Shown: in pieces, positions 126-17,064 of the stretch
How positions within the stretch are numbered: the first letter of the stretch is position 1
Layout of the letters: each line of letters starts with the position of its first letter
NCBI GenBank assembly: GCA_947624585.1
Contig: CANQKZ010000001.1
Coordinates: 1-59,639, forward strand
Length of the DNA stretch: 59,639 nt
Source of the DNA: an uncultured Oscillospiraceae bacterium
Lineage (GTDB): Bacteria > Bacillota > Clostridia > Oscillospirales > Oscillospiraceae
Direction of reading: 5' to 3'
The notes under the pieces: model-generated
The model's input: the letters and a program-made list of their open reading frames with translations, nothing else
What the model was told of the DNA's origin: nothing
Database searches by the model: none
Position numbers and translations under genes: made by a program

Positions 126-1433
126 TTACTTGAATTTTTCAACAGTTTCCATATCCGTGTATATCCAGATATAACCGCCGGCCGTTAACCTTTGTCCCCT
201 AGCACATTGGGAAATATTAGAAAAGTTTATGCTTGTTTTCTTGCTTGCCGTGCGTGCGGACTCATACGCCCCGATGCAAGGCCCTATTGAATATGTACCG
301 TCGTTTTTCCGCTCAAAAGTGTATTGTGCAACAGGTTTTGCCGTTTCTGTAGATTGTTTTACCGCCGTTTCCGTATCCGTCCACCCGTACGGGGGCTTGT
401 ATCCGGCATTTACCCATTTTTCCATAATTTGACGCAATACGCGCCGGACGTTTGCCACGTCTATGCCCATTGTTTCCGCTATATCCAACGTGCCCATTCC
501 TTGCATGCGATACTTTAACACGTATTGTTGGCGAACGGTCAAGTTTAAATCCGATACCATTCTAGCAAGCTTTCTGGCCGTCTGCCTATTAGCCGTACAT
601 GTTTTAAGGCCGTACCCGTACCCGTCCGGACCGCCGGGAATATTGCCGTGCGTAGTATCGCAAGCATAACCGGCGATATCCATACACTTTCCTAGGCGAA
701 AGTAAATTTCATCCATTTTATCCGCTGTAAATTCGCTTATATAGGAATATTCGCTTAAATTTGCTTTGATGGATGAAGATTCGGATACACGGCGACGTAC
801 GGCCTTGAATGCCTCTTGAATGGGGGTTGATTCAACGGATATGTATTCCGGTTTTTCGTCGAAAGACGTATATACACGTTTTTTAAGCTTTCGGACCGTG
901 ATTTTTACGTCTAGCCAGTTTTCCGGACCGGCATATTTTGACGCAAGCCCCAGCAAGGCCGCTACGGCCTCTTGCGACAGGTCCACGCCGTCAGAAAGTG
1001 TTTCCCGCTCAAGCCGTTTTGCGTTTTCGTCCGCCTGTTTGTTTACCACTTCAATTTTGATATCGCCGTCACTGTCAATTGTCCAGTTTGTTGCGGCGTT
1101 ACTTGCGTCACGCAATCCGTTTAAGGCGGCCCTATCGGATTTTAAGCCCCGCATTAATTCCACTATGGCCGGATTAAATCCGTTATCGGATACGCCGCCC
1201 TTTTGACTGGCCGTTTTGACGTTTTGTCCCGCCGTTTTGCGCTGCGGGTCGTTAACTTTTGCCATAACGCTATTGGCAATCGCATCCGCAAGGGCTTGAA
1301 TTTCTGAGGCGTAGTCCGCGCCGCTTGCAAAGGCTTTTTCAAAATCACGCTTGAGACTGTCAAAAGTGATTTTTCCCTTGCCTTTTTCGGCGTTTTGTGG
1401 TACATTGTTAGCGGACTTGTTAGGGTTTAACAT
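126..1433 (-). CDS. Putative transcription regulator with a sigma-70 region-4-like HTH and a C-terminal NUMOD1/IENR-like DNA-binding tail
   Basis: 435-aa ORF and the only convincing minus-strand gene. LTVRQQYVLKYRMQGMGTLDIAETMGIDVANVRRVLRQI resembles sigma region 4.2. The C-terminus ...SINFSNISQCARGQRLTAGGYIWIY resembles the DNA-binding tail of phage homing-endonuclease and regulator proteins. It has its own promoter and terminator and visibly lower GC than the rest. Confidence 0.65.
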   Translation of the reverse strand: MLNPNKSANNVPQNAEKGKGKITFDSLKRDFEKAFASGADYASEIQALADAIANSVMAKVNDPQRKTAGQNVKTASQKGGVSDNGFNPAIVELMRGLKSDRAALNGLRDASNAATNWTIDSDGDIKIEVVNKQADENAKRLERETLSDGVDLSQEAVAALLGLASKYAGPENWLDVKITVRKLKKRVYTSFDEKPEYISVESTPIQEAFKAVRRRVSESSSIKANLSEYSYISEFTADKMDEIYFRLGKCMDIAGYACDTTHGNIPGGPDGYGYGLKTCTANRQTARKLARMVSDLNLTVRQQYVLKYRMQGMGTLDIAETMGIDVANVRRVLRQIMEKWVNAGYKPPYGWTDTETAVKQSTETAKPVAQYTFERKNDGTYSIGPCIGAYESARTASKKTSINFSNISQCARGQRLTAGGYIWIYTDMETVEKFK

Positions 1434-1608
1434 GGTTTTTCCCTTCCCGGCAAGTCTAGCGGGTATTTGCGGGTCTGGAAACTTAGCAAATATCCGCTTT
1501 TTTCTTGCCTTTACACCATTTAAATGCCGGGTGTAAACGGCAAAATATCAATTGAAAAGGTACTTTGTGCGGGGGAAATTGGATACTTTCGCTTGTGAAA
1601 GTATAAAC

Positions 1609-1637
1609 ATTGTACACCCGTTGACGTATGTTGTCAA
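1609..1637 (-). promoter_or_regulatory. Sigma-A-type promoter for gene 126..1433
   Basis: The minus strand reads TTGACA (plus 1632-1637), a 17-nt spacer, then TACAAT (plus 1609-1614). It lies about 170 nt upstream of the start codon at 1433. Confidence 0.7.
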
Positions 1638-1676
1638 GGATATTTTTTAGATTTTATGAAAAATTATTTTAACGTC

Positions 1677-1725
1677 CGTGGGGACCGTGACACGGGGCCA
1701 CGGGCGGGCGGATACGTCTGGGGGA
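1677..1725. repeat. Diverged third copy of the 47-bp repeat seen at 1-71
   Basis: CGTGGGGACCGTGACACGGGGCCACGGGCGGGCGGATACGTCTGGGGG matches 28-70 apart from the central GC block. The two loci bracket the sigma-like gene. Confidence 0.75.
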
Positions 1726-2063
1726 AATGGGGGGGATACGGGGCGGGGGTTACTTGACCTTTTGACGCAATAGCAAGTATGGGGGGCGGTTTTGGTTTTT
1801 GGGGGGCTTGTGAGCGCCCCAGACAGAGGATGTCGGTTCATCTGACTGACACGGGAATATTTTTGCCAATTGCCTGCGAATGCTTTGGAAACAGGAGAGA
1901 AATACCTGAAAAGTTATCTAAAATGACATTGGGACGGAGAGGAATGTTTTGGTTTATGGGAAAAATGAAGCGTGAGAAGAAAAGAAGAAAATGCTTTAAT
2001 TGAAGGGATGTGGCTTGAGAAAGCTGTCCAACAGAAAAATTGGATAACGACTAGGAAAATGCC

Positions 2064-2092
2064 TTGAGAGGATAACTTCGATTTGGTATAAT
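2064..2092 (+). promoter_or_regulatory. Sigma-A-type promoter with extended -10, driving the rightward early genes
   Basis: TTGAGA (2064-2069), 17-nt spacer, TATAAT (2087-2092), preceded by TGg (extended -10). It is divergent from the minus-strand promoter. Confidence 0.6.
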
Positions 2093-2099
2093 AACGTCA

Positions 2100-2135
2100 G
2101 TGGTCAAGGAAATTATATTGACCCGGAAAGGCGAT
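2100..2135 (+). promoter_or_regulatory. Conserved ~35-nt leader element, copy 1 of 2
   Basis: GGTCAAGGAAATTATATTGACCCGGAAAGGCGATG is repeated as TATCAAGGAAATTATATTTACCCAAAAGGGAGGCGATG at 4779-4816. Both copies sit just upstream of early genes. Confidence 0.5.
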
Positions 2136-2143
2136 GTGAACAG

Positions 2144-2980
2144 ATGGCGATCATTCGGGTGGACTTCAATAAGGTCAGGGAAGAGAGAGCGGGGAGGGGC
2201 GAGGTCATTGACCTTGACGCTGTGCGCAGGAGCGGGAGGATGCTGAGGGAGGGGCTCATTGCTCCGGCTTGCGAGGAGACGGAGAGGGAGCTTGCCGGGG
2301 AGCACGCGGCCGAGCCCATCAAGAGCCTGGAGGATATAGATAAGGTATCCAGGTATCTGAGGGGTCAGGGGCGGTGGAGAGACAATATGCTCTTTATCGT
2401 GGGGATCAACTTTGGGCTGAGGGTGAGTGATCTGCTGTCGCTAAGGTTTGCGGATCTTATCAACGAGGACTTCGCCTTTCGGGAGAGGTTCCCCATCTTT
2501 GAGAAGAAGACGAGGAACACCAGAAAGGTGAAGAAGAACCGATACGTTACCGTCAACAGGGCGGTCATCGAAGCGGTGACGGAGTTTCTGGAGCATACGC
2601 CGGGTGTGAAGCTTTCGGACTATATGTTCAGGAGCCAGTCCAACAACAGCAAGGGAGCCAATAAACCCATGAGCCGGCAGGCGGCGGATGAGATGCTCAA
2701 GGGGGTGGCCCGTGAGCTGGGGCTTGGAAACAAGATGGCGACCCACTCTTTGAGGAAGACCTTTGCCTATCACCAGATGGTGATGAGCGGGAACGACCCG
2801 AGGAAGCTGCTCCTTCTCCAGAAGATGTTCGGCCACTCCTCCGCCGCTCAGACGCTGGACTATATCGGCATTACGGGGGAAGAGATCGACGAGGCATATA
2901 GGAGGCTGAACCTGGGGAGCCGGAGGTATAACTATCTGGTGGACGGACGTATCGAGGAGTGCGACGCCATGCTGGGGTGA
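2144..2980 (+). CDS. Tyrosine recombinase (phage integrase family), short form
   Basis: 278 aa. Catalytic-domain motifs GLRVSDLLSLRF (Arg I), HSLRKTFAYH (His-x-x-Arg) and GHSSAAQTLDYIG (His/Tyr nucleophile region). Confidence 0.85.
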   Translation: MAIIRVDFNKVREERAGRGEVIDLDAVRRSGRMLREGLIAPACEETERELAGEHAAEPIKSLEDIDKVSRYLRGQGRWRDNMLFIVGINFGLRVSDLLSLRFADLINEDFAFRERFPIFEKKTRNTRKVKKNRYVTVNRAVIEAVTEFLEHTPGVKLSDYMFRSQSNNSKGANKPMSRQAADEMLKGVARELGLGNKMATHSLRKTFAYHQMVMSGNDPRKLLLLQKMFGHSSAAQTLDYIGITGEEIDEAYRRLNLGSRRYNYLVDGRIEECDAMLG

Positions 2981-3211
2981 AAGGAGCGTTTTCTGCAAAC
3001 TGAACGCCCCAATTTGCAGAAATATTTTGAGAGCCCCTGCGGCTCTAGGCGTTTCAGCCACGTTCCCTTAAATAATATATATATAGAAAAAACCATGGTT
3101 TGAAAGCTAAGGCCAATGAATACCAAAGCTCTTTGTTTACCTACCATCCTGAACGCCGGAATTTGCAGAAATGTCGGGATGTGACCAAAAAAGGAGGGAA
3201 CATTTGTTCAT

Positions 3212-4573
3212 TTGGGTAAGGAGATCACTATCGTGGACGCCCGGATGGGGAGGGGGAAGTCCTCCGCCGCCATCCGGTACATGAACGAGAACAAGGGTAA
3301 GAAGCGGTTCCTTTATATCACGCCGTACCTGAAGGAGGTGGATCGGATCTGTGAGCAGTGTGATTTTGAACAGCCGGAGGCGGACCGGGCCAGTAATACT
3401 AATATCTAATTAAAATAAGACATTTGCGACGGTCTTTTTCGCGTCATGCTGCGTCAGCCGCCTTGGGAATACATACAGTATTCCCTGCGGCGTCTTCCTT
3501 GCCTGACACGAAAAATCCTCGCCGCTCGGTGTCTCCTTTTAAATAGATATTAGTATAAGTCCGCGGAGCTCAAGGCGTACTTAGGCCGCGGTCAGAACGT
3601 CGCCGCCACCCACGCCCTTTTCTATCTGCTGGACGATGAGGCGCTGGAGCTTGTGCGAAGCCGCCGGTATTCCCTGATCGTGGACGAGAGCATCAGCGCC
3701 GCGGAGAGGCTGCTGACGACCCACAGCGACTTTGAGATCGTCACGGAACAGCTGACCACGGAGGGGCAGAACGGGAAGCTCCGATGGCGCGACCCGGAGT
3801 ATTCCGGGGCGTTCGTCCGGATCAAGGAGGCCGCGGACGCCGGGGCCCTGTTCCGGGTCGGCGCCTCCCTCATTAAAATGCTGGACCCGGAAATCTTCCG
3901 CGCCTTTGACGAGGTGACTATGCTTACGTACCTCTTTAACGGACAGTACCAGAAGGGGTATCTGGACTGCCACGGCTTCCAATACCGCGTGGTGGGCATC
4001 GAGCATGACGAGCGCGGGGCGCGGTTCTCGGACAAGCCGGACGAACCGGAGCCGGTGGACTTCGGAGAGCTTATCCGCATTGTGGATGCCCCGCGGATGA
4101 ACGCCCCCGGCAACGGGCGGCTGGCGCTTTCCAAGGGGTGGTACTCGCGCCACGGGTATTCCAGCAAGGAGATCACGGCGCTGCGTAGTGGGATGCGCAA
4201 CTTTTTCCAGGACATCACGAAGAGCACGAAGGACGACCGGTTGTGGACGTGCTTTAAGGACCATCAGCAAAAGCTGGTGGACAGGAAGACAGGGCGGTAC
4301 CGGCGGGACTTCCTGCAATCCAACGCCAGGGCGACCAACGAATACCGCCATAAGACCAATATCGCCTATATGGTGAACCGGTTCGTGGACCCGAATCTGG
4401 AGTATCTGTTTGCCAGCCGTGGGCGCGCCGTCGATGAGGACCTCTTTGCCCTGTCGGAAATGCTTCAGTGGATCTGGCGGAGCGCCATTCGGGTGGGGGA
4501 GCCCATCAACCTGTATATACCGTCCAGCCGCATGAGGAAGCTTCTCACGGATTGGATCGAACAAAATACATAA
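3212..4573 (+). pseudogene. P-loop NTPase / helicase-like gene split by a 167-nt palindromic insertion
   Basis: The N-terminal ORF 3212-3409 carries Walker A (GRGKSS). The frame re-opens at 3554 and continues to 4573 with a Walker B / DExx-like SLIVDES. Both parts are in the same frame (position mod 3 = 2). The insertion supplies the stops TAA at 3407 and TAG at 3551. Confidence 0.75.
3393..3559. mobile_element. MITE-like palindromic element, copy A, inside the NTPase gene
   Basis: 167-nt block about 90% identical to 53893-54060. It has AT-rich imperfect terminal inverted repeats (TAATACTAATATCTAATTAAAA ... TTTTAAATAGATATTAGTATA). The GC-rich interior folds as one long hairpin with apex GGGAATAC-ATACA-GTATTCCC. 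Confidence 0.8.
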
Positions 4574-4583
4574 AAGGAGAAAA

Positions 4584-4769
4584 ATGAATATGGATCAACA
4601 CTCGTGCAGTCGGTGCATTTACGCGGCGGAGTGCCTACGGGGACGCGCCTGCGGCTACTACACGCCGGAGGATGAGGGCGAGCTGGAGGAGGAGTACGCG
4701 GAGAGCGGGCGGGAGGAATACCGGCGCGCCTGGGAGGAGTACATGGAGGAGGCCGGCGGGCGCTGTTGA
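4584..4769 (+). CDS. Small hypothetical protein, Cys-rich N-terminus and acidic C-terminus
   Basis: 61-aa ORF with RBS AAAAGGAG 6 nt upstream of the ATG. It fits the gap between neighbouring + strand genes. Confidence 0.5.
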   Translation: MNMDQHSCSRCIYAAECLRGRACGYYTPEDEGELEEEYAESGREEYRRAWEEYMEEAGGRC

Positions 4770-4778
4770 GCTTTAGGT

Positions 4779-4816
4779 TATCAAGGAAATTATATTTACC
4801 CAAAAGGGAGGCGATG
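4779..4816 (+). promoter_or_regulatory. Conserved ~35-nt leader element, copy 2 of 2
   Basis: See 2100-2135. It lies about 80 nt upstream of the TTG start of the RNA polymerase-like gene. Confidence 0.5.
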
Positions 4817-4895
4817 GACTCTGGCCAGACAAGCGTCATGTCAAAAATACATCTTCAAGATACACTCGGGGCGTCTGAGAAAGGCCCGGTGGCGG

Positions 4896-6725
4896 TTGAC
4901 TTTGCCGCTGGCGGAGGCGCGGAGGAACGATGAGGTCATATCCTTAGCGGACAGCCAGGTACTGCGGTGGCTGGATGAGCTGAACGGCGTGGAGGACGCG
5001 GAGAGGCGGGCTCGGGAGCTGAAGGCGGAGATCCGAAGGCTCCGCAGGGAGCCGAACAGCGTTCAGAACAGGAGGCGGGCGAGGGCGCTGTATGCCATGC
5101 TGGACGAGGTGCAGTTCAAGCCGGACTATGTGTGCGTCATCGTCGACAAGGAGAAGGATTACCGGCGGGCCTGCCGGGGGTTCAGCATCAACGGCATGAG
5201 GTTCGAGCGGCTCCTTGGGACTAACGGGGGCGTCAAGAACGAGACCATCGTCTTCGTGAGCGCCAGACGCGCCGGGGAGCTCCGGCGGCGGATAGACAAC
5301 GGGCGAGACCAGGAGATGAAGCTGGTGCCGGCGAAGCTGGAGGCGTACAAGGCGCTGACGTGCAGCGCGTCCGACCCGGTGTCCATGCCGCGGGGCGTGC
5401 TGGTGGTGAAGGACTGCGAGACGAAATTTTTCTCGGACGTCATTTTTCTCAGCGACGAGGACGGCGGGGAGCCGCGGATGGAGGTCCGAAGCGGGACGGA
5501 GATCGAGCTTGACGAGTCCGACGGGTACGGGCTGATGCTCCCGGCTCTGGCGGAACGGTGGTCTGAGGAGCTGGGGCTCGATTATCTCGTCTCCGGCGTC
5601 AACACCAGGTTCAGCTGGGAAAAGGGGATGGTCTTTACCTTTGATTTCCTGGACTTCGCGGAGAAGAAGGCGGGGACGTATACGGTCCGGGACGCCTGGG
5701 GGGACGAGGTGGATATCCGGAACGTGGAGCTCATCCTGACCACGTCCATGGTGAAGCTCTGGGACAGCTACAAAAGCTGTGAGGAATACCTGAAAAACAG
5801 CATGGAGAACGGGTACACCTTTGGGATAGCCAAGACGTGCCCTCGGGAGCTGGAGAGCCAGAGAACGCTGAACTACCAGTTTATCCAAAGCTACGACCTG
5901 ACGGACGAGGATATCGAGAAGCTGATCGAACCGACGGTGCGGGAGATACGGGACGTGCTGTGCGACGATGCAGACAAGACGGTGCTCTTTTTGAAGGGGA
6001 TGGGCCTACACGAGAGAAGCGCCGCCGGGTGCGAGAACGACTTTGCCAAGGCGCTGATGATCGAGCCGGAGATGCTGGACGACCCGTTCGTGCAGGGGAA
6101 GATCTACCAGGCTATACGCAACAGGATCAATGAGGCGAAGGTGGGCGTTCTCAACGTACACGGGAATTACTCCATCGTGGGCGGGGACCCCTACGCGCTG
6201 TGCCAGCACATCTTTGGCCTGGAGGTGACGGGGCTTTTGAAGGCGGGGGAGATCTACAGCCGGTACTGGTCCGACGCCGGGGCGGAGAGGCTGGCGTGCT
6301 TCCGGGCGCCCATGACCTGCCACAACAACATCCGGCTCGTCCGGCCCCACAGGAGCTGGGAGGCGGACTACTGGTACCGGTATCTGACGGCGTGTACGCT
6401 GTTCAACGCCTGGGATACGGCGGCACACGCCCTCAACGGAATGGATAAAGATGGAGATTTGGTTATGCTCACGGACAATGAAGTGTTGGTGGAGAGGCTC
6501 CGGCCTATGCCGGCGCTGATGTGCGTACAGCGTAAGGCGGAGAAGAGGCTCGTCACGGAGGCGGACGCCATCCAGGCCAACATCGACAGCTTCGGGGACG
6601 ACATCGGGAAGACCACCAACTGGGTCACCTCCATGTTCGAGGTGCAGGCGCGCTATCCCAAGGACAGCGAGGAATACCGGGTGCTGGACTACAGGATCAA
6701 GTGCGGGCAGCTGTACCAACAGAAT
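4896..6725 (+). CDS. YonO-like single-subunit two-barrel RNA polymerase, exon 1
   Basis: RLACFRAPMTCHNNIRLVRP parallels the beta-prime motif NRAPTLH. About 45 aa further on, NGMDKDGDLVML carries the DxDGD metal-binding signature of double-psi beta-barrel RNAPs and RdRPs. The ORF ends in the stop (6735) that follows the proposed intron start. The TTG start is uncertain. Confidence 0.6.
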
Positions 6726-7803
6726 AACCGGGCTTAACCGGTGTGTTCACGTTCACAGTAATGTGATCGAAAAGAGATCCACTGAATTGCTGGAAAACCC
6801 TAAAGCCGTGCGGGCTACAACGCAGGAATGAAAAATCCAAACGTGATGGCGGCGAAAGCGGAAAAAACAGCACGGATGGCGCATGGTCAAATCCTAAACG
6901 CCTTAAAAATGGGCAATCAGCAGCCAAGCCCCGAATAGGGGAAGGTTCAACGACTATCCCGTATGGGAGTAGGGCGCAAGCGATTGGCGCCCGAAGTGGT
7001 GGACGCCACGATACCGTGGCGAAGATATAGTCTGAGCGTTGGCCGAAAGGCCAAGAAGTTACCTGCGAAGGAGCAGCGTCCTAATATGCTTGGCGGCATA
7101 GATCATGAACGAAGGAGGTGATAGATATGCCAGCAAAGAACTTGACCTGGAAAAGGTTTGGCAGGCTTACGGTCTTATATCGGTGCGAAGACAACGTCAC
7201 GCCGTCCGGTTATAAGACACCTATGTGGATGTGTCTGTGCGACTGCGGCAACAAGGTCGCTGTCCGCGGAAAGAGCCTGACCGGAGGCGTGACCAGGTCG
7301 TGTGGATGCCTTGCGAAAGAGTTAATGTCTGAGAGGAAGCGCGTGCATGGCGGCTTTGGTACGAGGCTGTATGCCGTATGGGACAGTATGCGCCAGCGGT
7401 GCAATAATCCAAATCATTATGCCTATGCCAATTATGGAGGACGTGGAATTTCCGTTTGTAGGGAATGGGATGATTACTCCGCTTTTCGCCGTTGGGCGTT
7501 GTCATCCGGGTATGATGACGGCGCGGGGCGTGGTGAATGCACGTTGGATCGTGTGGATACAAACGGCGACTATCGCCCGGATAATTGCAGATGGGTGAAT
7601 ATGCGGGCACAGACGAACAACAGGAGGGAGACAATCTTCCTAACCTACGAAGGTCAAACCCTGCCGTTATCAGAGTGGGCTGATATAACCGGGATCAAGT
7701 ACCCCACCCTTTGGCAAAGATATAAGCGAGGATGGCCCATAGATAAGGTACTCCTGAGGCCGTAAAAATAACCGCCAAGCAAATGAATCGCAGAACATAA
7801 CTG
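6726..7803 (+). mobile_element. Group I intron (T4 td-like core) carrying a homing-endonuclease ORF
   Basis: Core elements ACGACTATCCC..GGGAGTAGGG..GAAGATATAGTCTG (6951-7034) match the conserved P7/P3/P8 core of phage group I introns. A 50-nt block at 6911-6960 is identical to the terL intron. The proposed 5' splice site follows U6725 (GAAU pairs with GUUC 6745-6748, U.G at the site). The proposed 3' end is G7803. Splicing joins ..LYQQN|AIDKAKG.. in frame. An alternative 5' site is 6734/6735. Confidence 0.75.
7127..7765 (+). CDS. Intron-encoded HNH-like homing endonuclease candidate
   Basis: RBS GAAGGAGG precedes the ATG at 7127. It has a Cys cluster (CLCDCG..SCGC), then YGGRGISVCREW and LDRVDTNGDYRPDNCRWVNMRAQTNN (HNH_3-like). 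It is a paralogue of 15408-15926. Confidence 0.7.
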   Translation: MPAKNLTWKRFGRLTVLYRCEDNVTPSGYKTPMWMCLCDCGNKVAVRGKSLTGGVTRSCGCLAKELMSERKRVHGGFGTRLYAVWDSMRQRCNNPNHYAYANYGGRGISVCREWDDYSAFRRWALSSGYDDGAGRGECTLDRVDTNGDYRPDNCRWVNMRAQTNNRRETIFLTYEGQTLPLSEWADITGIKYPTLWQRYKRGWPIDKVLLRP

Positions 7804-8646
7804 GCAATAGACAAAGCGAAAGGAATTATTTGTAAGCCGATGCCGAGGGAGTGGCATGACAGGCACGCGGCGAATGTGATCGAGGAGCCGGAGAAGAGGA
7901 GGCTTTATCAGAGGACGGCGGTGGATAAGAAGCCGTACTTTATGCGGGTCATCTACCCGGCGCTTATGAATCAGTACAACACATACATAAAAAACACGAA
8001 TAAGAACGCCATGCGGGAGTTCGGAATGACGGTGGAGGAGCTCAAGGCCGTCCCGGAGGCGGAGAGGACCGAGAGGCAAAGGGATTTTCTGCGGTACTTC
8101 GACCGGAGTATGCCGGTGGGAGTGAGCGACTGCGTGATGAACCGCATCTGCCGGAGGATCGAGGCGGAGTTCGACGGGTACATCGGGCGGCATAACGCCT
8201 CAACGGCGTTTGACTACACCATCATGAAAAGCGGCGCGGAGTACAGCCGGGGACAGCTGGACGCCATTGTGAAGCTCTATGAGAACTACTGCCAGCGCCT
8301 GCGGAGCTTCGCCGTTTTCACAAGCTACGAGCGGGTGGACGAGTACGACTCCTTTGCCAGGATGCAGGAGATGCGCCAGGAGTTTGTGTCGGAGTGTACG
8401 AAGATCTGCCCGGACAGGAGGGCCCTTTGCGACATCGTCCTGGACATCTGCTACCGCCGGAACGGGACGAAGCGTTTTGCCTGGGAGATGTGCGGGGACG
8501 AGATCATAGAAAATCTTCTGGAGAGGCACGGCGGGGAGCTGACCTTCCCGGAGCCGGACCCGGAGGGGGACATTGTCTTTGCCGGGGAGAGGTTCACCAG
8601 AAAGACCATCAGGATCGGAGGAGAGAATGAGTATAGAGCTGAATGA
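7804..8646 (+). CDS. YonO-like RNA polymerase, exon 2
   Basis: The frame is open from 7801. It continues exon 1 after removal of the intron, and the two exons together give about 890 aa. Confidence 0.6.
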   Translation, partial: AIDKAKGIICKPMPREWHDRHAANVIEEPEKRRLYQRTAVDKKPYFMRVIYPALMNQYNTYIKNTNKNAMREFGMTVEELKAVPEAERTERQRDFLRYFDRSMPVGVSDCVMNRICRRIEAEFDGYIGRHNASTAFDYTIMKSGAEYSRGQLDAIVKLYENYCQRLRSFAVFTSYERVDEYDSFARMQEMRQEFVSECTKICPDRRALCDIVLDICYRRNGTKRFAWEMCGDEIIENLLERHGGELTFPEPDPEGDIVFAGERFTRKTIRIGGENEYRAE

Positions 8647-9765: not shown

Positions 9766-10300
9766 GGGAGGGGCGTCACCGTTTGTCTGCCTGTGCTGGA
9801 CGGAACCACCCCGGCGCTGCGCGCCACCCCGACCTAGGAGGGGCAACGTAGTTGGAGGCGGGTGCGGTTTGTCGGGGCCGGTCTGTCATCCAACCTTCGC
9901 TTCCCCCCTGCCCCCCTCCTACGAGGAGGGGGCTTAAAAGGTTGCGGCTTCGCCGCATTCTTTGATTTGTCCGCTGCGGCGGGGACGACCCTTTCGGCGC
10001 CTGCGGGCGCCACCTCCCCCGTGGGGGAGGTAGGGACGAGGGACGGGGGGCGAAGGCTCGAATACCCCGCCGCTGCGGCGGCACCCCATCTCCGGCCTAA
10101 GAGCCGCCCCTTCGGGGCGGTTGGCCTCCGAAACACGCCTGCGGGCGTAGTCTTTCCCAAAGAGGGGTTAAGGGGAATAAGGTTGCGGCTTCGCCGCGTT
10201 TTGATTATCCGCTGCGGCAACCCTTCCGGCGCTTCGCGCCACCTCCCCCAGGGGGAGGTTTGCGGGACCTGCCACCACATGCTGTGCTTGAATGGATTGT
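9766..10300. repeat. Mosaic GC-rich hairpin array R1 (unit order D-E-B-A-C-I-B-A)
   Basis: Units are shared with the other arrays. Examples are D at 9802-9844 (GGAACCACCCCGGCGCTGCGCGCCACCCCGACCTAGGAGGGGC), the hairpin CCCCCTCCT-ACG-AGGAGGGGG at 9912-9932, and the A unit ending CCTCCCCC-GT-GGGGGAGG at 10013-10030. The ORFs across it are Pro/Arg/Gly-rich shadows. Confidence 0.85.
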
Positions 10301-10675: not shown

Positions 10676-11866
10676 ATGGACTTATCGCAGAGGCCGAATG
10701 AGAGCAATTTGGACTATCATAAGCGCCTTGTCTATGGCAAGCTCACGGACAAAACGCTGGCGGATGTGGATTATTCGGAGCTGGCCGAGGCGCTGTACGG
10801 ACAAGCCTATGCCTCCGACGTGGCGAGAAGGATGGTGTACGGGAGCAAGCGCACGCTTGACGCCCTTGCCTTGGATGCCGAAACGGATATTGAAAGCGCG
10901 GATATCCTGACGGAGTTGGACACCAAAAAGGTCGAGCTCCAAAAGGAGCGCCAGAAGTTTTTTGACCAGCGTAACGCCTTCAATAAGGCGGTGCGGGAGC
11001 GGGCCAGGCAGGAGGAGCTCAATGAGATTCTGCTGCGGGCCGTGCGGGAGGGGGATTTGCCGGAGCTCAGGTATGAGCCGCGGGAGACGGCGCCTTCGGA
11101 CAACGACCTTCTGGTGAGCCTTAATGACCTGCACTATGGGGCGGTGGTGGAGAACTACTGGAATACATACAGCCCCGAGCGGTGCCGGGAGATGATGTGC
11201 GCGTATCTCGACAGGATCGTCGAGATCGGGCGGCTCCACAAAAGCCAGCGGTGTATTGTCTGGGAGAACGGGGACGCCATCAGCGGGAACATCCACCAGT
11301 CCATCGCCGTGACGAACAAGGAAAACGTCATCGAGCAGATCAAGGGGGTGTCGGAGCTCATCGCGGAATTCTTGGCGGAGCTGAGCCGGCATTTTGAGGC
11401 GGTGGTCTTCGTCAGCGTGGCGGGGAACCACAGCCGTCTCAATCCCAACAAGGAGATGGCGCTGGTGAGCGAGCGGCTGGATGACCTGGTGGAGTGGTAT
11501 CTAAAGGCGAGGCTCCAAGCTTTTGAGAACGTGACTATCGGCGGGGCCAGGAAGATAGACAACACCATGTACCTCATGGACGTGCGGGGGCGTACCTACT
11601 GCGGCGTCCACGGGGACTTTGACGACACGCCGGGGAAGGTGCAGACGCTTCAGACCATGGCCGGCAAGCCGGTGTACGCGGTCCTATCCGGGCACCGGCA
11701 CCACAACGAGCTGGGGGAGGTGCAGGGCGTGAAGACCGTTATGGCCGGGAGCTTCCTGGGCATGGACGACTACTGCGTCCAGAAGAGGATCGTCGGGCGG
11801 GCGGAGCAGATCGTCTGCGTCTGCACGGAGGACGGGATCTTGTGTTCCTATGACATTCCGCTGTGA
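10676..11866 (+). CDS. Calcineurin-like metallophosphoesterase (SbcD/Mre11-type nuclease candidate)
   Basis: Ordered motifs DLHYG, GDAISG, GNHS, HGDF and GHRHH. Confidence 0.8.
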   Translation: MDLSQRPNESNLDYHKRLVYGKLTDKTLADVDYSELAEALYGQAYASDVARRMVYGSKRTLDALALDAETDIESADILTELDTKKVELQKERQKFFDQRNAFNKAVRERARQEELNEILLRAVREGDLPELRYEPRETAPSDNDLLVSLNDLHYGAVVENYWNTYSPERCREMMCAYLDRIVEIGRLHKSQRCIVWENGDAISGNIHQSIAVTNKENVIEQIKGVSELIAEFLAELSRHFEAVVFVSVAGNHSRLNPNKEMALVSERLDDLVEWYLKARLQAFENVTIGGARKIDNTMYLMDVRGRTYCGVHGDFDDTPGKVQTLQTMAGKPVYAVLSGHRHHNELGEVQGVKTVMAGSFLGMDDYCVQKRIVGRAEQIVCVCTEDGILCSYDIPL

Positions 11867-11869
11867 TCG

Positions 11870-12590
11870 GGCTGGCCGAAAGGCCCTGGTCCACCATATC
11901 GCGGGGAAATCCCCCGCCAGTTTCTCCACACCAGACAGGAATCGGGCGCTGTGAAACGCAGCTCGTCTGGCCGCACAGACTATAAATCATATTGCGGAAC
12001 GTGTGCGCAATGAGGCATTCGGGCCCGGCGATCTCTCGGACGCAGATCGGATGTAAGTCCTCAACATTGAACAGAACCCGGCACGCGACGTCCTCGCTGA
12101 AGCCGCTTTGCCTTACCGCCACGCAAGCGTGACGGCTCGGGCGCGGGCTTCGCTCGTCCTCTCCCCACGCAATCTTTGATTGCGCGGGGACCCTAATGAG
12201 ACGACGATGCGGACCACGCCGGGTCAATTAAGACATATTTACCTCACGCCGCCGTGTGGACAGTCCGGTGCCTACCGGGAAAGAGCGGCGGCCTGGGGTG
12301 GATATATTTGAACAATCCCATAGCGGTAAGCCTCCCAAACATCCGGGAAGTGCTGAGCCTATGGGGTTTAGAAGCCCTGGCACGGGCTGTAGTGCCGAAT
12401 GTGTGCGGTGGCGGGATAGACACCGCCACCCGCATACTTTATATGCGGAGTGCTTGAAGCAGAAGCCGGAGGCGCTGACCGGTCAACGGCGCTGAGGGTG
12501 TGGCGGGTCACGCCCGTCTCTCCGCTCCAAAGCGCAAGCGGGCGTTGAAGCGCGAGAAGTTAAGTGCCGTATTCAGGGCGACGGGCTGGC
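11870..12590. other. ORF-free, hairpin-rich ~720-bp region; candidate large structured RNA or cis-acting site; strand unknown
   Basis: No ORF has an RBS or a recognisable protein. Many local and nested stems are present: GGCC-GAAA-GGCC (11873-11884), GCGCAATC-TTTG-ATTGCGC (12167-12185), CCCATAG(12317)...CTATGGG(12365), GGTGGCGG-GATAGACA-CCGCCACC (12407-12430) and GCATA-CTTTA-TATGC (12432-12446). Confidence 0.4.
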
Positions 12591-13065
12591 GGTGGCTGAT
12601 GATAAGACGCAGCGCGGCGCTTGTTATGTGAAAATTGGGGCGGAACCACCCCTGCCGCGCTTTGCGCGGCTGTCCCCTCCGTTGGAGGGGCTAAAGGGGA
12701 GCACACGGGTAGTCTTGCCCCTCCTACGGAGGGGTGGCGCGAAGCGCCGGGGTGGTGCTGCAATCCGTCTACCGGAAGCGTCCGTTACGCTCCACGGGCT
12801 CGAATACCCCGCCGCCGCGGCGGCACCCCTCTTCCCCGAAGAGGGGTTAAGGGGAATAAGGTTGCGCCGCGTTGCGGCGCTCTTTTATTATCCGCTGCGG
12901 TGGCCCCTTCGGCGCTTCGCGCCACCTCCCCCAAGGGGGAGGCAACCCTTTCGGCGCCTTGCGCCACCTCCCCTGGAGGGGAGGCTAAAGACGAAGGCGC
13001 AGCCCTGAAGGGGGCCCTTTCGGCGCTGCGCGCCACCTCCCCCAAGGGGAAGGTAAAAAGGGGCG
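12590..13065. repeat. Mosaic GC-rich hairpin array R2
   Basis: It contains D-type units in both orientations (12640-12695 forward, 12720-12770 inverted), C and B units (12795-12900), and three consecutive A units (12904-13055). Confidence 0.85.
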
Positions 13066-13426: not shown

Positions 13427-14446
13427 ATGGCGGACGCGCCGAAGCGAAAGAGGCTTGAAAAGACCGTTTCCGATCCGCCGCCGGTGGGAAACCAGAAGTT
13501 CTACTGCCCCCGGTGCGGTACGGCGTACAGCCGGCAGAAGGGGTATTTTCCGGTGAGCCACAGCCCTATGTACCGGATGGGCGGGTATTTGCCCTGGTGC
13601 AGTGAATGTGTGGACGAGATGTACGACGAGTACCGGAAAAAGTTGGGGGACGACCGGCGCGCCATGAAGCGGATGTGCATGAAGATGGATCTCTATTGGA
13701 GCGACAGCATCTTCGACATGGTGGAGCGGACGGCAGGGGTCAACTCACGCATCAGAAGCTACATCGGGAAGACGAATATCATCCGCTACATAGATAAGAC
13801 CTATGACGACACCCTCCAGGAGGAGGAGAAAAAGGGCGCGGCCGTCTCCCTCGCGCCCGCCGCCGACGCCGACGGAGAGGACGAGGCGGGTGTGGACGAC
13901 GAGCTTATCGAGTTCTGGGGCACCGGTTATGACGCGGATTCCTATAAGGATCTGGACAGGCGGTACACCAAGTGGACAAGCGGTGTGAAGAATATCTCCC
14001 CGGTCCACGAGGCGCTTTATAAGACCATCTGCATCAACGAGCAGATCATCGCCAGGAGCGGCGCCAAGGGGGACGTGGCGGACAAGGCGCAGAAGAACAT
14101 GATGGACGCCCTCAGCGCCCTGAACATCAAACCCTCTCAGGTCAAGAATGACAGCCAGGACGCGGAGGTGGAGAAGATGCCGCTGGGCGTGGGCATCCAA
14201 ACGTGGGAGTTTCATAGGCCGCTCCCCAGGACGCCGGAGGAGCTGAAGGACCAAAGCCGGCTCAAGAGAAATATCCTCACCTGGTTCGTGGGGAAGACCA
14301 GCAAAATGGTGGGCGCCAAGAACAGCTATTCCCGTATGTACGAGGAGGCCATGGACAAATACCGCGTCCGAAAGCCGGAGTACGCCGGCGAGGATGACGA
14401 CACGATCCTCGCTGATATTTTCGGAGACGGGGGTGACGGCGGATGA
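13427..14446 (+). CDS. Putative terminase small subunit with an N-terminal zinc ribbon
   Basis: It lies immediately upstream of terL and is translationally coupled to it (ATGA overlap at 14443). It has CPRCG...CSEC and an acidic linker. Confidence 0.55.
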   Translation: MADAPKRKRLEKTVSDPPPVGNQKFYCPRCGTAYSRQKGYFPVSHSPMYRMGGYLPWCSECVDEMYDEYRKKLGDDRRAMKRMCMKMDLYWSDSIFDMVERTAGVNSRIRSYIGKTNIIRYIDKTYDDTLQEEEKKGAAVSLAPAADADGEDEAGVDDELIEFWGTGYDADSYKDLDRRYTKWTSGVKNISPVHEALYKTICINEQIIARSGAKGDVADKAQKNMMDALSALNIKPSQVKNDSQDAEVEKMPLGVGIQTWEFHRPLPRTPEELKDQSRLKRNILTWFVGKTSKMVGAKNSYSRMYEEAMDKYRVRKPEYAGEDDDTILADIFGDGGDGG

Positions 14447-15075
14447 GTCAGGGACAGTCGAGGCGGGAGCGGGTCGTCGAGGGGATGGCGATCTGGGGGA
14501 GTTACTACCGGGAGAACATCGACGAGTTCGTGACGGACTACCTGGGGTTCACCTTTTTGAAGTGGTTTCAGCTGGCGCTTCTCGTGATGATGAATTGCTG
14601 CCGGACCTTTGTTTTGATCGCGGCCCGAGGAATCGGAAAGTCCTTCCTGGTGGCGATCTTCGCCTGCGTCCGGTGCATTTTGTACCCGGGGACGCAGGTG
14701 GTCATCACCTCCGGGACCAGGGGGCAGGCCATCAACGTCCTGGAGAAGATCCAGGTACAGCTCATGCGGGATTCCACGAATCTGCGCAACGAGATCGACC
14801 TGGAAAAATCCAAGTTCTCCGGCCAGGACGCCAAGGTGCTTTTCAAAAACGGGAGCTACATCAAGGTGGTCACGGCCAACGACTACGCCCGCAGCAACAG
14901 GGCGAACATTTTGATCGTGGACGAGTTCAGGATGCTCCGCAAGGACACCGTGGATACCGTCCTCAAGAAGTTCCTGACAAGCCGGCGGATGCCGGCGTAC
15001 AGCGAGCTGACGGACGCCGAGCGCAAAGCGGAATACGCCAAGGAGCCCAACGAGTCCTTCTACTTATCATCGGCT
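14443..15075 (+). CDS. terL: Terminase large subunit, exon 1 (ATPase domain)
   Basis: Walker A is ARGIGKSF, Walker B is ILIVDEF, and motif III is YLSSA at the exon end. TAA follows immediately as the first intron codon. Confidence 0.85.
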
Positions 15076-15945
15076 TAACGAAATAGGCCGCCAGCGCAGT
15101 AATGCACCGGTACTGATCCATCGAATTGCTGGAAACCCCTTAGAGCCATGCAGACCACAACGTAAGGATGAGAGATGCCTAAGCGTGAAGGTTTGAAAAC
15201 TGTATGGATTGGGCAATCAGCAGCCAAGCCCCGAATAGGGGAAGGTTCAACGACTATCCCGTTGAGGGAGTAGGCCGCAAGCTACTGGCGGTCGAAGCGG
15301 TGGACGCCCGTTTACGGGCGAAGATATAGTCTGAACTTTGTGGAAACGCAAAGATAATATTGGAGGTTTGGCGAACCTTTATTTGTGATTATTTGGGGGC
15401 TTCAATAATGCCAACGGAAAAAAGGGATTACAGTATTCTCGGGCAAAAATTTGGAAGGCTTGTCGTTTTAGATTTTGCCGGAAAGGATAAAGCAGGGCAT
15501 ACGCTTTTGAGATGCAAGTGCGACTGCGGGGCCGAGGTAATTGTTTCGAGGAGCAATTTGAAATCCGGGGCGACTTCATCGTGTGGCTGCGCGAGGAAAG
15601 AAATTGTTTCAAGCCTCAAAACGACACATGGCGGGAAGGGAACGCGCCTGTATAGAGTGTGGCAGGGTATGCGTGAACGATGCTCGAATCCAAACCACTC
15701 CTCTTATATGCTTTATGGCGGTAGGGGAATATCGGTATGTGATGAGTGGGATCGGGACTACTCTGCGTTCAGAGATTGGGCCATTGCCAACGGGTATGAC
15801 CCAACAGCGAAACGAGGAGAGTGTACCCTTGACCGCGTCGATTGTAACGGCTGTTATTGTCCTGAAAATTGTAGATGGGTTTCTATGCTCGTACAAAGCA
15901 ATAATAGGAGAAATAGTCACAAATAATCATCCAATAAACAAATTG
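15076..15945 (+). mobile_element. Group I intron in terL carrying a homing-endonuclease ORF
   Basis: P1 is formed by exon CGGCU (15071-15075) pairing with intron GGCCG (15086-15090), with a U.G wobble at the splice site. The core at 15211-15333 includes ACGACTATCCC, GGGAGTAGGC and GAAGATATAGTCTG. The terminal G is 15945. Splicing joins ..FYLSSA|YFKDHWSY.. in frame. Confidence 0.85.
15408..15926 (+). CDS. Intron-encoded HNH-like homing endonuclease candidate
   Basis: Paralogue of 7127-7765, with CKCDCG..SCGC, YGGRGISVCDEW and LDRVDCNGCYCPENCRWVSMLVQSNN. The likely start is ATG 15408; the track start at 15360 is less likely. Confidence 0.7.
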   Translation: MPTEKRDYSILGQKFGRLVVLDFAGKDKAGHTLLRCKCDCGAEVIVSRSNLKSGATSSCGCARKEIVSSLKTTHGGKGTRLYRVWQGMRERCSNPNHSSYMLYGGRGISVCDEWDRDYSAFRDWAIANGYDPTAKRGECTLDRVDCNGCYCPENCRWVSMLVQSNNRRNSHK

Positions 15946-17064
15946 TATTTCAAAGACCATTGGTCCTACACAAAGACGGTGGACACCTTTAAGGTGATGC
16001 TGGACGACACGAGGGCGGACTTTGTTTGCGGGCTTCCGTATCAGCTCTCCATCCAGGAGGGGCTTCTGTTCCCGGAGGATGTGGAGAGCGATATGCTGGA
16101 GTCGGACTTTAATGAGATAAAGTGGTCGATGGAGATGGAAGCGGATTTCTTCGGGGATGACGGGGACGCGTTTTTTGACTATAACTCGATCTCAAAGAAC
16201 AGGCGCATCCAATATCCCATGCTGCCGGAGAGGTTGGCCTCGGTTTTGGGGCATCCGAAGAGTATGAGGATACCGCCGAAACAGCCGGGGGAGATGAGGA
16301 TCCTGTCGGCGGATATTGCGCTTATGTCCAGCAAAAAGCAGAATAACGACGCCTCGGCGATCTTCATAAACCAGATGCTCCCCACGAAGGCGGGGCGGTA
16401 CATCAGCAACATCGTCTATACGGAATCCTCGGAGGGCCTGCGCACGGACGCGCAGGCTTTAGTTATACGCAAGCTCTTTGACGAGTTCCAATGCGACTAT
16501 ATCGTGCTGGATACCAACGGCGTGGGGCTTGGCGTCTTTGACGAGCTCTGCCACGACATCCCGGACCCGGACTCCGGGGAGATCTATCCGGCGCTTTCGT
16601 GCTGCAACGACCCAACCATGGCGGAGCGGTGCACCAACAAGGACGCGGAGAAGGTCATCTGGTCCATGAAGGCCACCAACAAGGTGAATTCCGATTGCGC
16701 GGTGCTTTTGAGAGACGGCTTCCGCAACGGACGGTTGAGACTGCTGGTCACGGAGTACGACGCCGGGGAGCTGTTGGATGGCGTGGAGGAGTTCAGGAAG
16801 CTGAGCCCGCAGCAGCAGGAGGTCGTGAAGCTGCCGTATACCAATACGACGCTTTTGATCAACGAGCTTGTGAATCTGCAAAGCGAAACGACGCCGGCGG
16901 GGGTGCGGGTCTATGAAAAGACCGGCATGAGAAAGGACCGGTATTCCAGCCTCAGCTACAACTTCTATGTGGCGACACAGCTGGAGGCAAAACAGACGAG
17001 ACGGCGCAGGAGCCAGGAGGAGCCGACGAGCTTCTTCCTGTACAGGGCGCCGAAAATCAAATAG
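15946..17064 (+). CDS. terL: Terminase large subunit, exon 2 (nuclease domain)
   Basis: It continues exon 1. Acidic motifs ILSADIALMS and DYIVLDTNGVGLGVFDEL are typical of the TerL RNase-H-like nuclease domain. Confidence 0.85.
   Translation, partial: YFKDHWSYTKTVDTFKVMLDDTRADFVCGLPYQLSIQEGLLFPEDVESDMLESDFNEIKWSMEMEADFFGDDGDAFFDYNSISKNRRIQYPMLPERLASVLGHPKSMRIPPKQPGEMRILSADIALMSSKKQNNDASAIFINQMLPTKAGRYISNIVYTESSEGLRTDAQALVIRKLFDEFQCDYIVLDTNGVGLGVFDELCHDIPDPDSGEIYPALSCCNDPTMAERCTNKDAEKVIWSMKATNKVNSDCAVLLRDGFRNGRLRLLVTEYDAGELLDGVEEFRKLSPQQQEVVKLPYTNTTLLINELVNLQSETTPAGVRVYEKTGMRKDRYSSLSYNFYVATQLEAKQTRRRRSQEEPTSFFLYRAPKIK

Follow-up and report, generated by a model that had tools for sequence, protein, structure and literature searches.

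We have analyzed a stretch of 59,639 nucleotides (nt) from an uncultured Oscillospiraceae bacterium (contig CANQKZ010000001.1, positions 1 to 59,639 of the forward strand), which we shall call the window. The DNA runs which contain it come from a rabbit gut metagenome. Two open reading frames (ORFs) of its forward strand, 4896–6737 and 7840–8646, are separated by about 1.1 kb. The preliminary description of this DNA took them for the two parts of a phage RNA polymerase gene of the YonO type, interrupted by a group I intron which carries an ORF of its own; the coordinates which it gave for the two ORFs and the gap between them are correct. The features of the locus are listed in Table 1, together with some other features of the window.

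Table 1. Coordinates of the interrupted RNA polymerase gene, of its intron and of other features in the window.
Feature	Position	Strand	Basis
Exon 1, YonO-type RNA polymerase gene (610 amino acids)	4896–6725	+	Pfam PF05183, PHROG, tblastn
Group I intron, IA2-like (1078 nt, omega G = G7803)	6726–7803	+	Rfam RF00028; colinearity of homologues
P1 stem-loop	6722–6748	+	Local fold; comparison of four lineages
P2 hairpin, UCAC/GUGA	6753–6766	+	Covaries: CACC/GGUG, GUACC/GGUGC, GUACG/CGUGC
Catalytic core	6778–7054	+	Rfam alignment; all pairs checked
P3	6778–6784/6997–7003	+	
P4	6788–6793/6917–6922	+	
P5, with long P5 extension	6798–6800/6911–6913	+	
P6	6929–6932/6938–6941	+	
P7	6952–6956/7028–7032	+	
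P7.1 (UCCC/GGGA)	6957–6960/6965–6968	+	
P7.2 (GGGCGC/GCGCCC)	6972–6977/6987–6992	+	
P8	7005–7010/7015–7020	+	
P9	7039–7044/7049–7054	+	
5' strands of the two long-range helices closing the ORF loop	7063–7096	+	Inverted repeat; covariation in four lineages
Intron ORF, putative homing endonuclease (212 amino acids; ATG 7127 to TAA 7765)	7127–7765	+	PHROG, relatives, AlphaFold (AF2) model
3' strands of the long-range helices	7772–7793	+	Inverted repeat; covariation in four lineages
Exon 2, RNA polymerase gene (280 amino acids and stop)	7804–8646	+	phrog_35857, phrog_8308, homologues
G+C-rich hairpin repeats, first cluster	9805–10261		
YonJ-like metallophosphatase gene	10676–11866		
DUF3800-XI RNA motif	11868–11915		Rfam
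G+C-rich hairpin repeats, second cluster	12715–13055		
Large-terminase-like (terL) gene, exon 1	14443–15075		
terL group I intron	15076–15945		Rfam match 15066–15353, 88.1 bits
terL intron ORF	15399–15926		
terL gene, exon 2	15946–17064		

Exon 1 matches the Pfam family PF05183 (RdRP), which includes QDE-1 and YonO, with an E-value of 2.6e-12 (46.7 bits, the cut-off being 23.8). It contains the metal-binding motif DKDGD at residues 517–521, and matches phrog_25339 and phrog_8308 in the PHROG database. The ligated protein matches yonO genes of the SPbeta group in tblastn searches (around 25% identity, E 1e-24 to 1e-28). Nearer homologues are found in Clostridium phage c-st, in Enterocloster phages, and in Bacillus phage BUCT082; identity to the YonO-type genes of c-st, the Enterocloster phages, and MT835481 is 24–43% over the matched part. 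The RdRP profile, the DxDGD motif and the homology to SPbeta yonO support the type of polymerase proposed in the preliminary description: judging from its sequence, the host gene codes for a YonO-type RNA polymerase, a single polypeptide with two barrels, whose RNA synthesis is a prediction. DNA-dependent RNA polymerase activity has been demonstrated for SPbeta YonO alone (PMC5467207).

Genes similar to YonV, YonJ, and YonG adjoin the polymerase in related loci. Because of these neighbors and of the homology to yonO, we take the element to be an SPbeta-like phage or prophage. A PDB sequence search with the polymerase gave only noise. Many homologues (the 917 amino acid forms) start about 27 residues further upstream. 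In the window, the corresponding N-terminal stretch is in a different frame (ORF 4766–4933), and the polymerase would start with TTG at 4896. This start agrees with that of some homologues of 890 amino acids (MTLPIAE...).

The boundaries of the intron may be placed with the help of the homologues. When position 6725 is joined to 7804, a protein of 890 amino acids is obtained, U6725 being the last base of exon 1 and G7803 the last base of the intron. A large protein database contains 4813 relatives of this polymerase at E ≤ 1e-20. The best ones are uninterrupted, with 864–917 amino acids and 72–76% identity. The sequence ...DYRIKCGQL[FY]QQNAIDK[AT]KGI[IL]A[KR]PMP... is present in 9/9 homologues read, and it corresponds to the predicted ligation product with no gap: The ligated peptide ..KCGQLYQQN|AIDKAKGIICKPMPREW.. 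agrees with the uninterrupted homologues residue by residue. The same gapless colinearity is found in the DNA of 72 intron-less alleles, obtained from 80 IMG/VR loci. In the phrog_35857 profile, exon 1 ends at position 72 and exon 2 resumes at position 74, from its second residue, while phrog_8308 spans both exons. Since a shift of a single base at either site would alter the Asn or the Ala codon, the boundaries are U6725| and G7803|. These are the junctions which the preliminary description had proposed in order to obtain a continuous protein. It had also suggested an alignment with uninterrupted homologues as a check, which fixes the junction and shows that the best homologues are single proteins.

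The group I nature of the intron is apparent in an Rfam scan, another check which had been suggested. RF00028 matches positions 6726–7055 over the full model (1–253) with 88.0 bits, the gathering score being 50 (E 3.9e-21). The core strings pointed out in the preliminary description are all present: ACGACTATCCC (6951–6961), GGGAGTAGGG (6965–6974), and GAAGATATAGTCTG (7021–7034). The presence of P7.1 and P7.2 between P7 and P3' is a hallmark of the phage IA2 subgroup; by these two helices, the intron is IA2-like. With a G+C content of 52%, the intron is below exon 1 (61%) and exon 2 (57%).

P1 had been described as a pairing of only 4 base pairs. These four pairs are formed between the exon strand GAAU (6722–6725) and the guide GUUC (6745–6748): G6722-C6748, A6723-U6747, A6724-U6746, and the wobble U6725.G6745 at the splice site. 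However, they are extended by an intron helix of six base pairs, which consists of A6726-U6744 and, after a bulged G6743, of ACCGG (6727–6731) paired with CCGGU (6738–6742), with the loop GCUUAA. The local fold of P1 and P2 has an energy of -19.7 kcal/mol (z = -3.6), and 0/200 shuffles are equally good. The P1 aligned by Rfam contains non-canonical pairs, we have rejected it and replaced it by this well-folding and conserved P1.

The intron ORF lies downstream of P9, inside a loop which is shut by two long-range helices. The outer bridge helix pairs CUGCGA (7063–7068) with UCGCAG (7788–7793), 10 nt away from G7803. The inner bridge helix pairs 7084–7096 with 7772–7784, and a small hairpin (GGA-GCAGCG-UCC, 7070–7081) is located between the 5' strands of both.

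At least 20 public contigs of metagenomic phages contain the same intron at the same site, between residues 610 and 611 of the polymerase. The closest relatives of the intron ORF (66–70% identity) are all in this intron site of other phages, where they share a common arrangement: exon 1, around 380 nt, the ORF, and exon 2. Besides the window, the intron is present in the contigs which we have named L168–L172 and L173–L190. The last ones are 18 further IMG/VR contigs, detected by a search for the 3' intron–exon junction. They form a clade with introns of 1038–1045 nt, exactly at 610|611, and an ORF of 205–207 amino acids; their polymerases have 48% (exon 1) and 37–39% (exon 2) identity to that of the window. 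Taken together, the intron-bearing polymerases of L168, L169, and this clade are only 37–65% identical to the polymerase in the window. Two other matches to the junction pattern (L191 and L192, from genome_contigs) encode no polymerase and have been discarded; about one chance match is expected according to our estimate.

Rfam gives 94.2 bits for the intron core of L168 and 78.4 bits for that of L169. U-1 and omega G are invariant: G is the last base of the window intron and of all 17 related introns extracted whole. We have compared the structure in four lineages, represented by the window, L168, L169, and L173. GAAU/GUUC, P4, and P7 do not vary. Covariation is found in the P1 extension, P2, P3, P5, P6, P7.2, P8, P9, both bridges, and the small hairpin. 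The window, L168, and L169 have only canonical or G.U pairs, and L173 has one non-pair, in P8. L169 and L173 have P7.2 only, with no P7.1. For example, P3 is found as UCCACUG/UGGUGGA, GCCUAUCG/UGGUAGGC, CCCUUUG/UGGAGGG, and UUCAUUG/UGGUGAA, and the inner bridge as AUAUGCUUGGCGG/CCGCCAAGCAAAU, ACUUGUUUAAU/AUUAAACAAGU, and UUGUCUGUUAUAU/AUAUAACAGACAA. Because of these compensatory changes across lineages, the comparison is strong evidence that the structure of the intron RNA is under selection, including the ORF-bridging helices through which the 3' splice site returns to the core.

The ATG of the intron ORF is preceded, 8 nt before it, by the Shine–Dalgarno sequence AGGAGG (7113–7118). The minimum-energy fold of the intron contains a hairpin (7102–7106/7118–7122 plus 7095–7100/7126–7131) which covers both. 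The AUCAU...GUGAU part of this hairpin is found again in L168, not in L169. According to this folding model, the hairpin could limit the translation of the ORF.

The ORF matches phrog_374 (E 1.5e-64), phrog_3377, phrog_2081, and phrog_953. All of them are named 'HNH endonuclease', a name which is an annotation and not a functional test. We have found no match to the ORF in Pfam at E ≤ 0.1 (and none at E ≤ 1 for 39 members of its family), in NCBIfam, or in a PDB sequence search; an hhalign comparison with a NUMOD4+HNH_3 intron ORF found nothing either. The ORF has at least 4757 relatives, none of them with Pfam domains. The confident AlphaFold model has a predicted local distance difference test (pLDDT) score of 94.6. 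A Cys-rich beta module makes up its N-terminal part and helices its C-terminal part; the domain between them contains a beta-beta-alpha element (residues 139–142, 154–157, and 159–164). D141, R142, N153, C154, Q162, and N165 are invariant in an alignment of 39 sequences. When aligned by eye, an Arg is found where HNH_3 has its catalytic His, so the canonical His is missing. Since the D141/R142 pair is invariant, the ORF is probably functional rather than decayed. The preliminary description had called this 212 amino acid ORF HNH-like. The ORF itself is confirmed and its endonuclease-like nature is supported; the HNH label, which appears in PHROG names, is unproven because there is no match to any curated profile or PDB entry and an Arg takes the place of the HNH_3 His. 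From its sequence, we prefer to call the product a putative homing endonuclease, whose family is uncharacterised.

The intron is absent from 80/80 of the nearest IMG/VR relatives, and also from PMBT24 and BUCT082. In every intron-bearing allele, the flanks are CAACAGAAT|GCAATAGAY. Among the 72 intron-less alleles, the upstream 9-mer is found in nine and the downstream 9-mer in none. Examples of the intron-less target site are ..CAGCAGAATGCCATCGACAAAGC.. and ..TGCGGACAGCTTTTTCAGCAGAATGCCATCGACAAAGCGAAAGG.., and GCAATAGAC is a variant site. The distribution of the intron and of its flanks fits either co-conversion during homing or selection for P1 pairing and endonuclease immunity; it is no proof of homing. 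A wastewater contig (run X9), which corresponds to L180 at 2251/3295, is an intron-less allele. It has 2 differences from L180 in 267 nt on the exon 2 side, and 32 in 257 nt on the exon 1 side. This difference may mark a recombination breakpoint at the homing site.

A second group I intron is found in the window, in the terL gene. The ligated terL product matches Terminase_6N, with TerL_ATPase just below the cut-off. The core of this intron is very similar to that of the polymerase intron, and its ORF is 56% identical to the polymerase-intron ORF. Its predicted boundaries follow from the reading frame, from the terminal G, and from P1 (CGGCU.G).

We consider, with a probability of around 0.88, that positions 6726–7803 are a mobile phage group I intron of the IA2 type, and that the RNA polymerase gene which it interrupts is a YonO-type one, from an SPbeta-like phage or prophage. 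The sequences show the RNA family of the intron, its exact boundaries, the conservation of its structure with covariation, its presence or absence at one precise site, and the fixed flanking codons; we infer its catalysis and splicing, the endonuclease activity of its ORF product, and its homing. Transcription would run through the intron, whose RNA would fold with P1 presenting U6725 paired with G6745 and with P3–P9 building the core. The two long-range helices would loop out the 0.64 kb ORF and return G7803 to the core. Free guanosine would attack after U6725, and the released 3' OH would then attack after G7803. The joined exons would form the mRNA for an intact polymerase of 890 amino acids (...QLYQQN-AIDKAKG...); in unspliced RNA, translation would stop three codons into the intron. 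The intron ORF would be translated separately, from its own ribosome-binding site. Its product would most likely be a site-specific DNA endonuclease, cutting intron-less alleles in co-infecting relatives. Repair of the cut allele would copy the intron into it, with a few flanking exon bases.

Some observations count against an active intron. P10 is weak, with three pairs (G7804.U6744, C7805-G6743, and A7806-U6742), and inspection of the sequences shows that it is not kept in L168 or L173; we therefore do not propose this pairing. The core is absent from the minimum-energy fold of the whole intron, where it pairs with the ORF; such a failure is expected for an RNA of 1.1 kb and says little either way. 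We have found no RNA runs containing the window. The runs with the related L180 allele are wastewater and aquatic 'RNA' runs, with short contigs only; they contain only contigs of divergent intron-less alleles, and no spliced form. Two candidates for spliced RNA have been rejected. One contig skips the intron, but its joint reads CACG and its exon 1 side diverges by 12%; it comes from a different intron-less allele. A metatranscriptome contig which joins exon 1 to GCTATTGATAAAACT is also another allele, not a spliced product.

It is very improbable that the insertion does not splice and that the polymerase consists of two polypeptides, of 613 and 268 amino acids (the second one from M7840), which assemble. 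Some T4-like phages have their nrdA gene split in this way by a homing-endonuclease insertion. The lack of RNA runs would agree with a gene in pieces, as would the ATG located 36 nt into exon 2 and the treatment of the pieces as separate genes in GenBank for c-st and the Enterocloster phages. However, this internal ATG (7840) has no Shine–Dalgarno sequence before it, and the break is within an invariant motif: Twelve residues, AIDKAKGIICKP, would be lost, and exon 1 would be extended by NRA, a tail which is not homologous. Four diverged lineages keep a full ribozyme core whose helices covary, with U-1 and omega G, which also argues against a gene in pieces.

A dead remnant of an intron, which has inactivated the RNA polymerase gene of a prophage, is less probable still. 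The window is metagenomic and the viability of the phage is not established, and the ORF lacks the catalytic His of the HNH type. Nevertheless, both exons are full length with all their conserved motifs, the ORF is intact and keeps the D141/R142 pair, and functional phage introns typically have the same Rfam score. In addition, the terL intron is equally intact, in an essential gene.

We give very little credit to a 5' splice site at 6734/6735, which the preliminary description had mentioned as an alternative. The Rfam alignment does place P1 around GGGCUUAAC, and the terL intron, which splices after GGCU, has a U.G pair in a matching CGGCU|UAA string. But splicing there would insert Asn-Arg-Ala in a motif where none of the inspected homologues has an insertion, GCUUAA is here the loop of the P1 extension, and Rfam itself flags the P1 pairs at this position as non-canonical. 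The sequence after GAAU is unrelated in L168, L169, and L173, yet the GAAU/GUUC pairing is retained. An intein is excluded: A stop follows after three codons of the insertion, and the ORF uses another frame and a Shine–Dalgarno sequence of its own.

Unannotated insertions which resemble group I introns are also found in other YonO-type genes. In the Enterocloster phages CB457P1 and CB457P2, the gene is interrupted at ELD|KLKG, 9 nt downstream of the window site. The catalytic motif itself is interrupted, at DxD|GD, in CB457P1, c-st, MT835481, and contig L169. The five insertions in GenBank records follow a U, end in G, and contain the P7 strands AACGACTA and (GAT)ATAGTC; the site-A insertion in L169 was identified from gene layout and ORF alone. 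Their ORFs, where present, are either NUMOD4+HNH_3 or AP2-containing. Rfam detects nothing in these other interrupted loci, either at the gathering score or at E ≤ 1. A search of the insertions alone scores CB457P1 site B at 46.8 bits (E 2e-10), c-st at 20.4 bits (E 0.004), and CB457P1 site A at 13.7 bits. The genes which they interrupt are of the same family as the host gene of the window intron, and the insertions share with this intron U-1, the terminal G, and the P7 strands. They differ in their insertion points, in their endonuclease types, and in their ORF, which is upstream of P7 or absent.

The insertion in c-st (L005, AP008983.1) has 317 nt and no ORF; it is located in DxD|GD at 3097–3413, between CST179 and CST178. 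In the Enterocloster phages (L003 and L004), two insertions interrupt the gene of CB457P1, and a single one, whose ORF is AP2-containing, that of CB457P2; MT835481.1 (L006) has one with a NUMOD4+HNH_3 ORF. L169, a human gut contig, has a YonO-type gene with three exons (789–5478). Its site-A insertion, with a NUMOD4+HNH_3 ORF, and its site-B intron, with an ORF of the window family, are 276 nt apart. Another group I intron is found in CB457P1 (L001, OP172753.1) at 5945–6276, with 93.6 bits; it is followed by a GIY-YIG/NUMOD3 (I-TevI-like) ORF, between two coding sequences annotated as 'hypothetical protein'. The polymerase pieces are annotated in GenBank as separate hypothetical proteins (c-st CST179/CST178, CB457P1_00001-00003), and a 2021 review cites the c-st exon 1 fragment as the enzyme (PMC7824862).

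The N-terminal part of the window ORF, around 75 residues, matches the intron ORF of CB457P2 (hhalign 96%, E 1e-9). The CB457P2 ORF, with the shared Cys module, targets the same polymerase motif. The Cys-rich module may be a DNA-binding one, reused by an unrelated HNH/AP2-type endonuclease which targets a site 9 nt away. We suggest, very tentatively and with more doubt than conviction, that the ORF family with its at least 4757 relatives could be an unrecognised class of homing endonucleases, either an Asp-Arg variant of the beta-beta-alpha nucleases or a different fold. Its Cys module would be reused, and QQNAIDKAKG and DxDGD would be hotspots of competing endonuclease lineages.

Phage IA2 introns with endonuclease ORFs include those in T4 td, nrdB, and sunY, in SPbeta bnrdE and bnrdF, and in the DNA polymerase genes of SPO1 and SP82 (I-HmuI), as well as that of Bastille (I-BasI). 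The window intron resembles them in several features: It belongs to the same Rfam family, with P7.1/P7.2 and U-1/omega G; it is present in some genomes and absent from others, at a conserved motif of an essential phage gene; and its ORF, with its own Shine–Dalgarno sequence, is looped out of a peripheral helix. In contrast, its host is a YonO-type RNA polymerase gene and not one for nucleotide metabolism or DNA polymerase, its ORF is downstream of P9 in a P9.1-like bridge of two helices, and the ORF family has neither a Pfam model nor the HNH His.

Introns have been described in other phage RNA polymerase genes. The PhiPA3 gp210 intron is located in a gene for an RNA polymerase beta subunit, and its HNH endonuclease attacks PhiKZ (PMC11620839), cutting the homologous gene of a competing phage. 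In 201phi2-1 there is a mobile intron between gp273 and gp274 (PMC2919709). As in these two cases, the window has a group I intron and an endonuclease ORF in a phage RNA polymerase gene, beside catalytic or invariant residues. However, those are multisubunit polymerases of jumbo Pseudomonas phages, while ours is a single-polypeptide YonO/RdRP-like enzyme in a Clostridia-type phage. PhiPA3 gp210 is a canonical HNH endonuclease, whose catalytic His is required (H82R is dead); the window ORF has a natural Arg at the aligned position. By analogy with gp210, and within the tentative reading given above, the endonucleases may also be weapons between co-infecting phages. For the delta and zeta crAss-like phages, a preprint places an intron-encoded LAGLIDADG endonuclease in its drawing of the RNA polymerase gene block (10.1101/2020.07.20.212944). 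These phages also have a single-polypeptide two-barrel polymerase, and many group I introns in core genes. They differ in their Bacteroidetes-host lineage, their giant polymerase, and their endonuclease family, and they lack a comparable site-level description.

In our literature search, we have found no paper linking YonO-type genes with introns. The preliminary description had suggested that this gene would be a new target for such introns. This agrees with the lack of any paper reporting an intron in a YonO-type gene, but the same intron is already present in the public contigs described above, other YonO-type genes have insertions, and phage RNA polymerase genes of other types have already been found to contain introns.

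Some other features of the window should be mentioned. A DUF3800-XI RNA motif, with 58 bits in Rfam (gathering score 37.8), lies directly 3' of the YonJ-like metallophosphatase gene. The region holding this gene is flanked by the two clusters of hairpin repeats. Their units are GCGCCACCTCCCCCNNGGGGGAGG and CGGCGCTKCGCGCC, with 64 nt copies which are 84% alike, and parts of them are inverted. Many overlapping spurious ORFs appear near these repeats, a consequence of the G+C-rich hairpin family.

In summary, the element is a genuine mobile group I intron, well formed and inserted in a YonO-type RNA polymerase gene, with splicing predicted from its sequence and from that of its relatives. This type of element is a textbook one, and our understanding of how group I introns work is unchanged. 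Nevertheless, gene callers and GenBank split these polymerases into two or three 'hypothetical proteins', and once the introns are recognized, the full-length YonO-type polymerases become available again for annotation, phylogeny, and expression. It also draws attention to a very common, uncharacterised family of intron ORFs. Two invariant motifs contain at least three insertion points, which marks these motifs as functionally critical, and such clusters of independent insertions are natural material for studies of competition between introns and endonucleases. The single-polypeptide two-barrel RNA polymerase joins the essential phage genes which have been colonised by group I introns.

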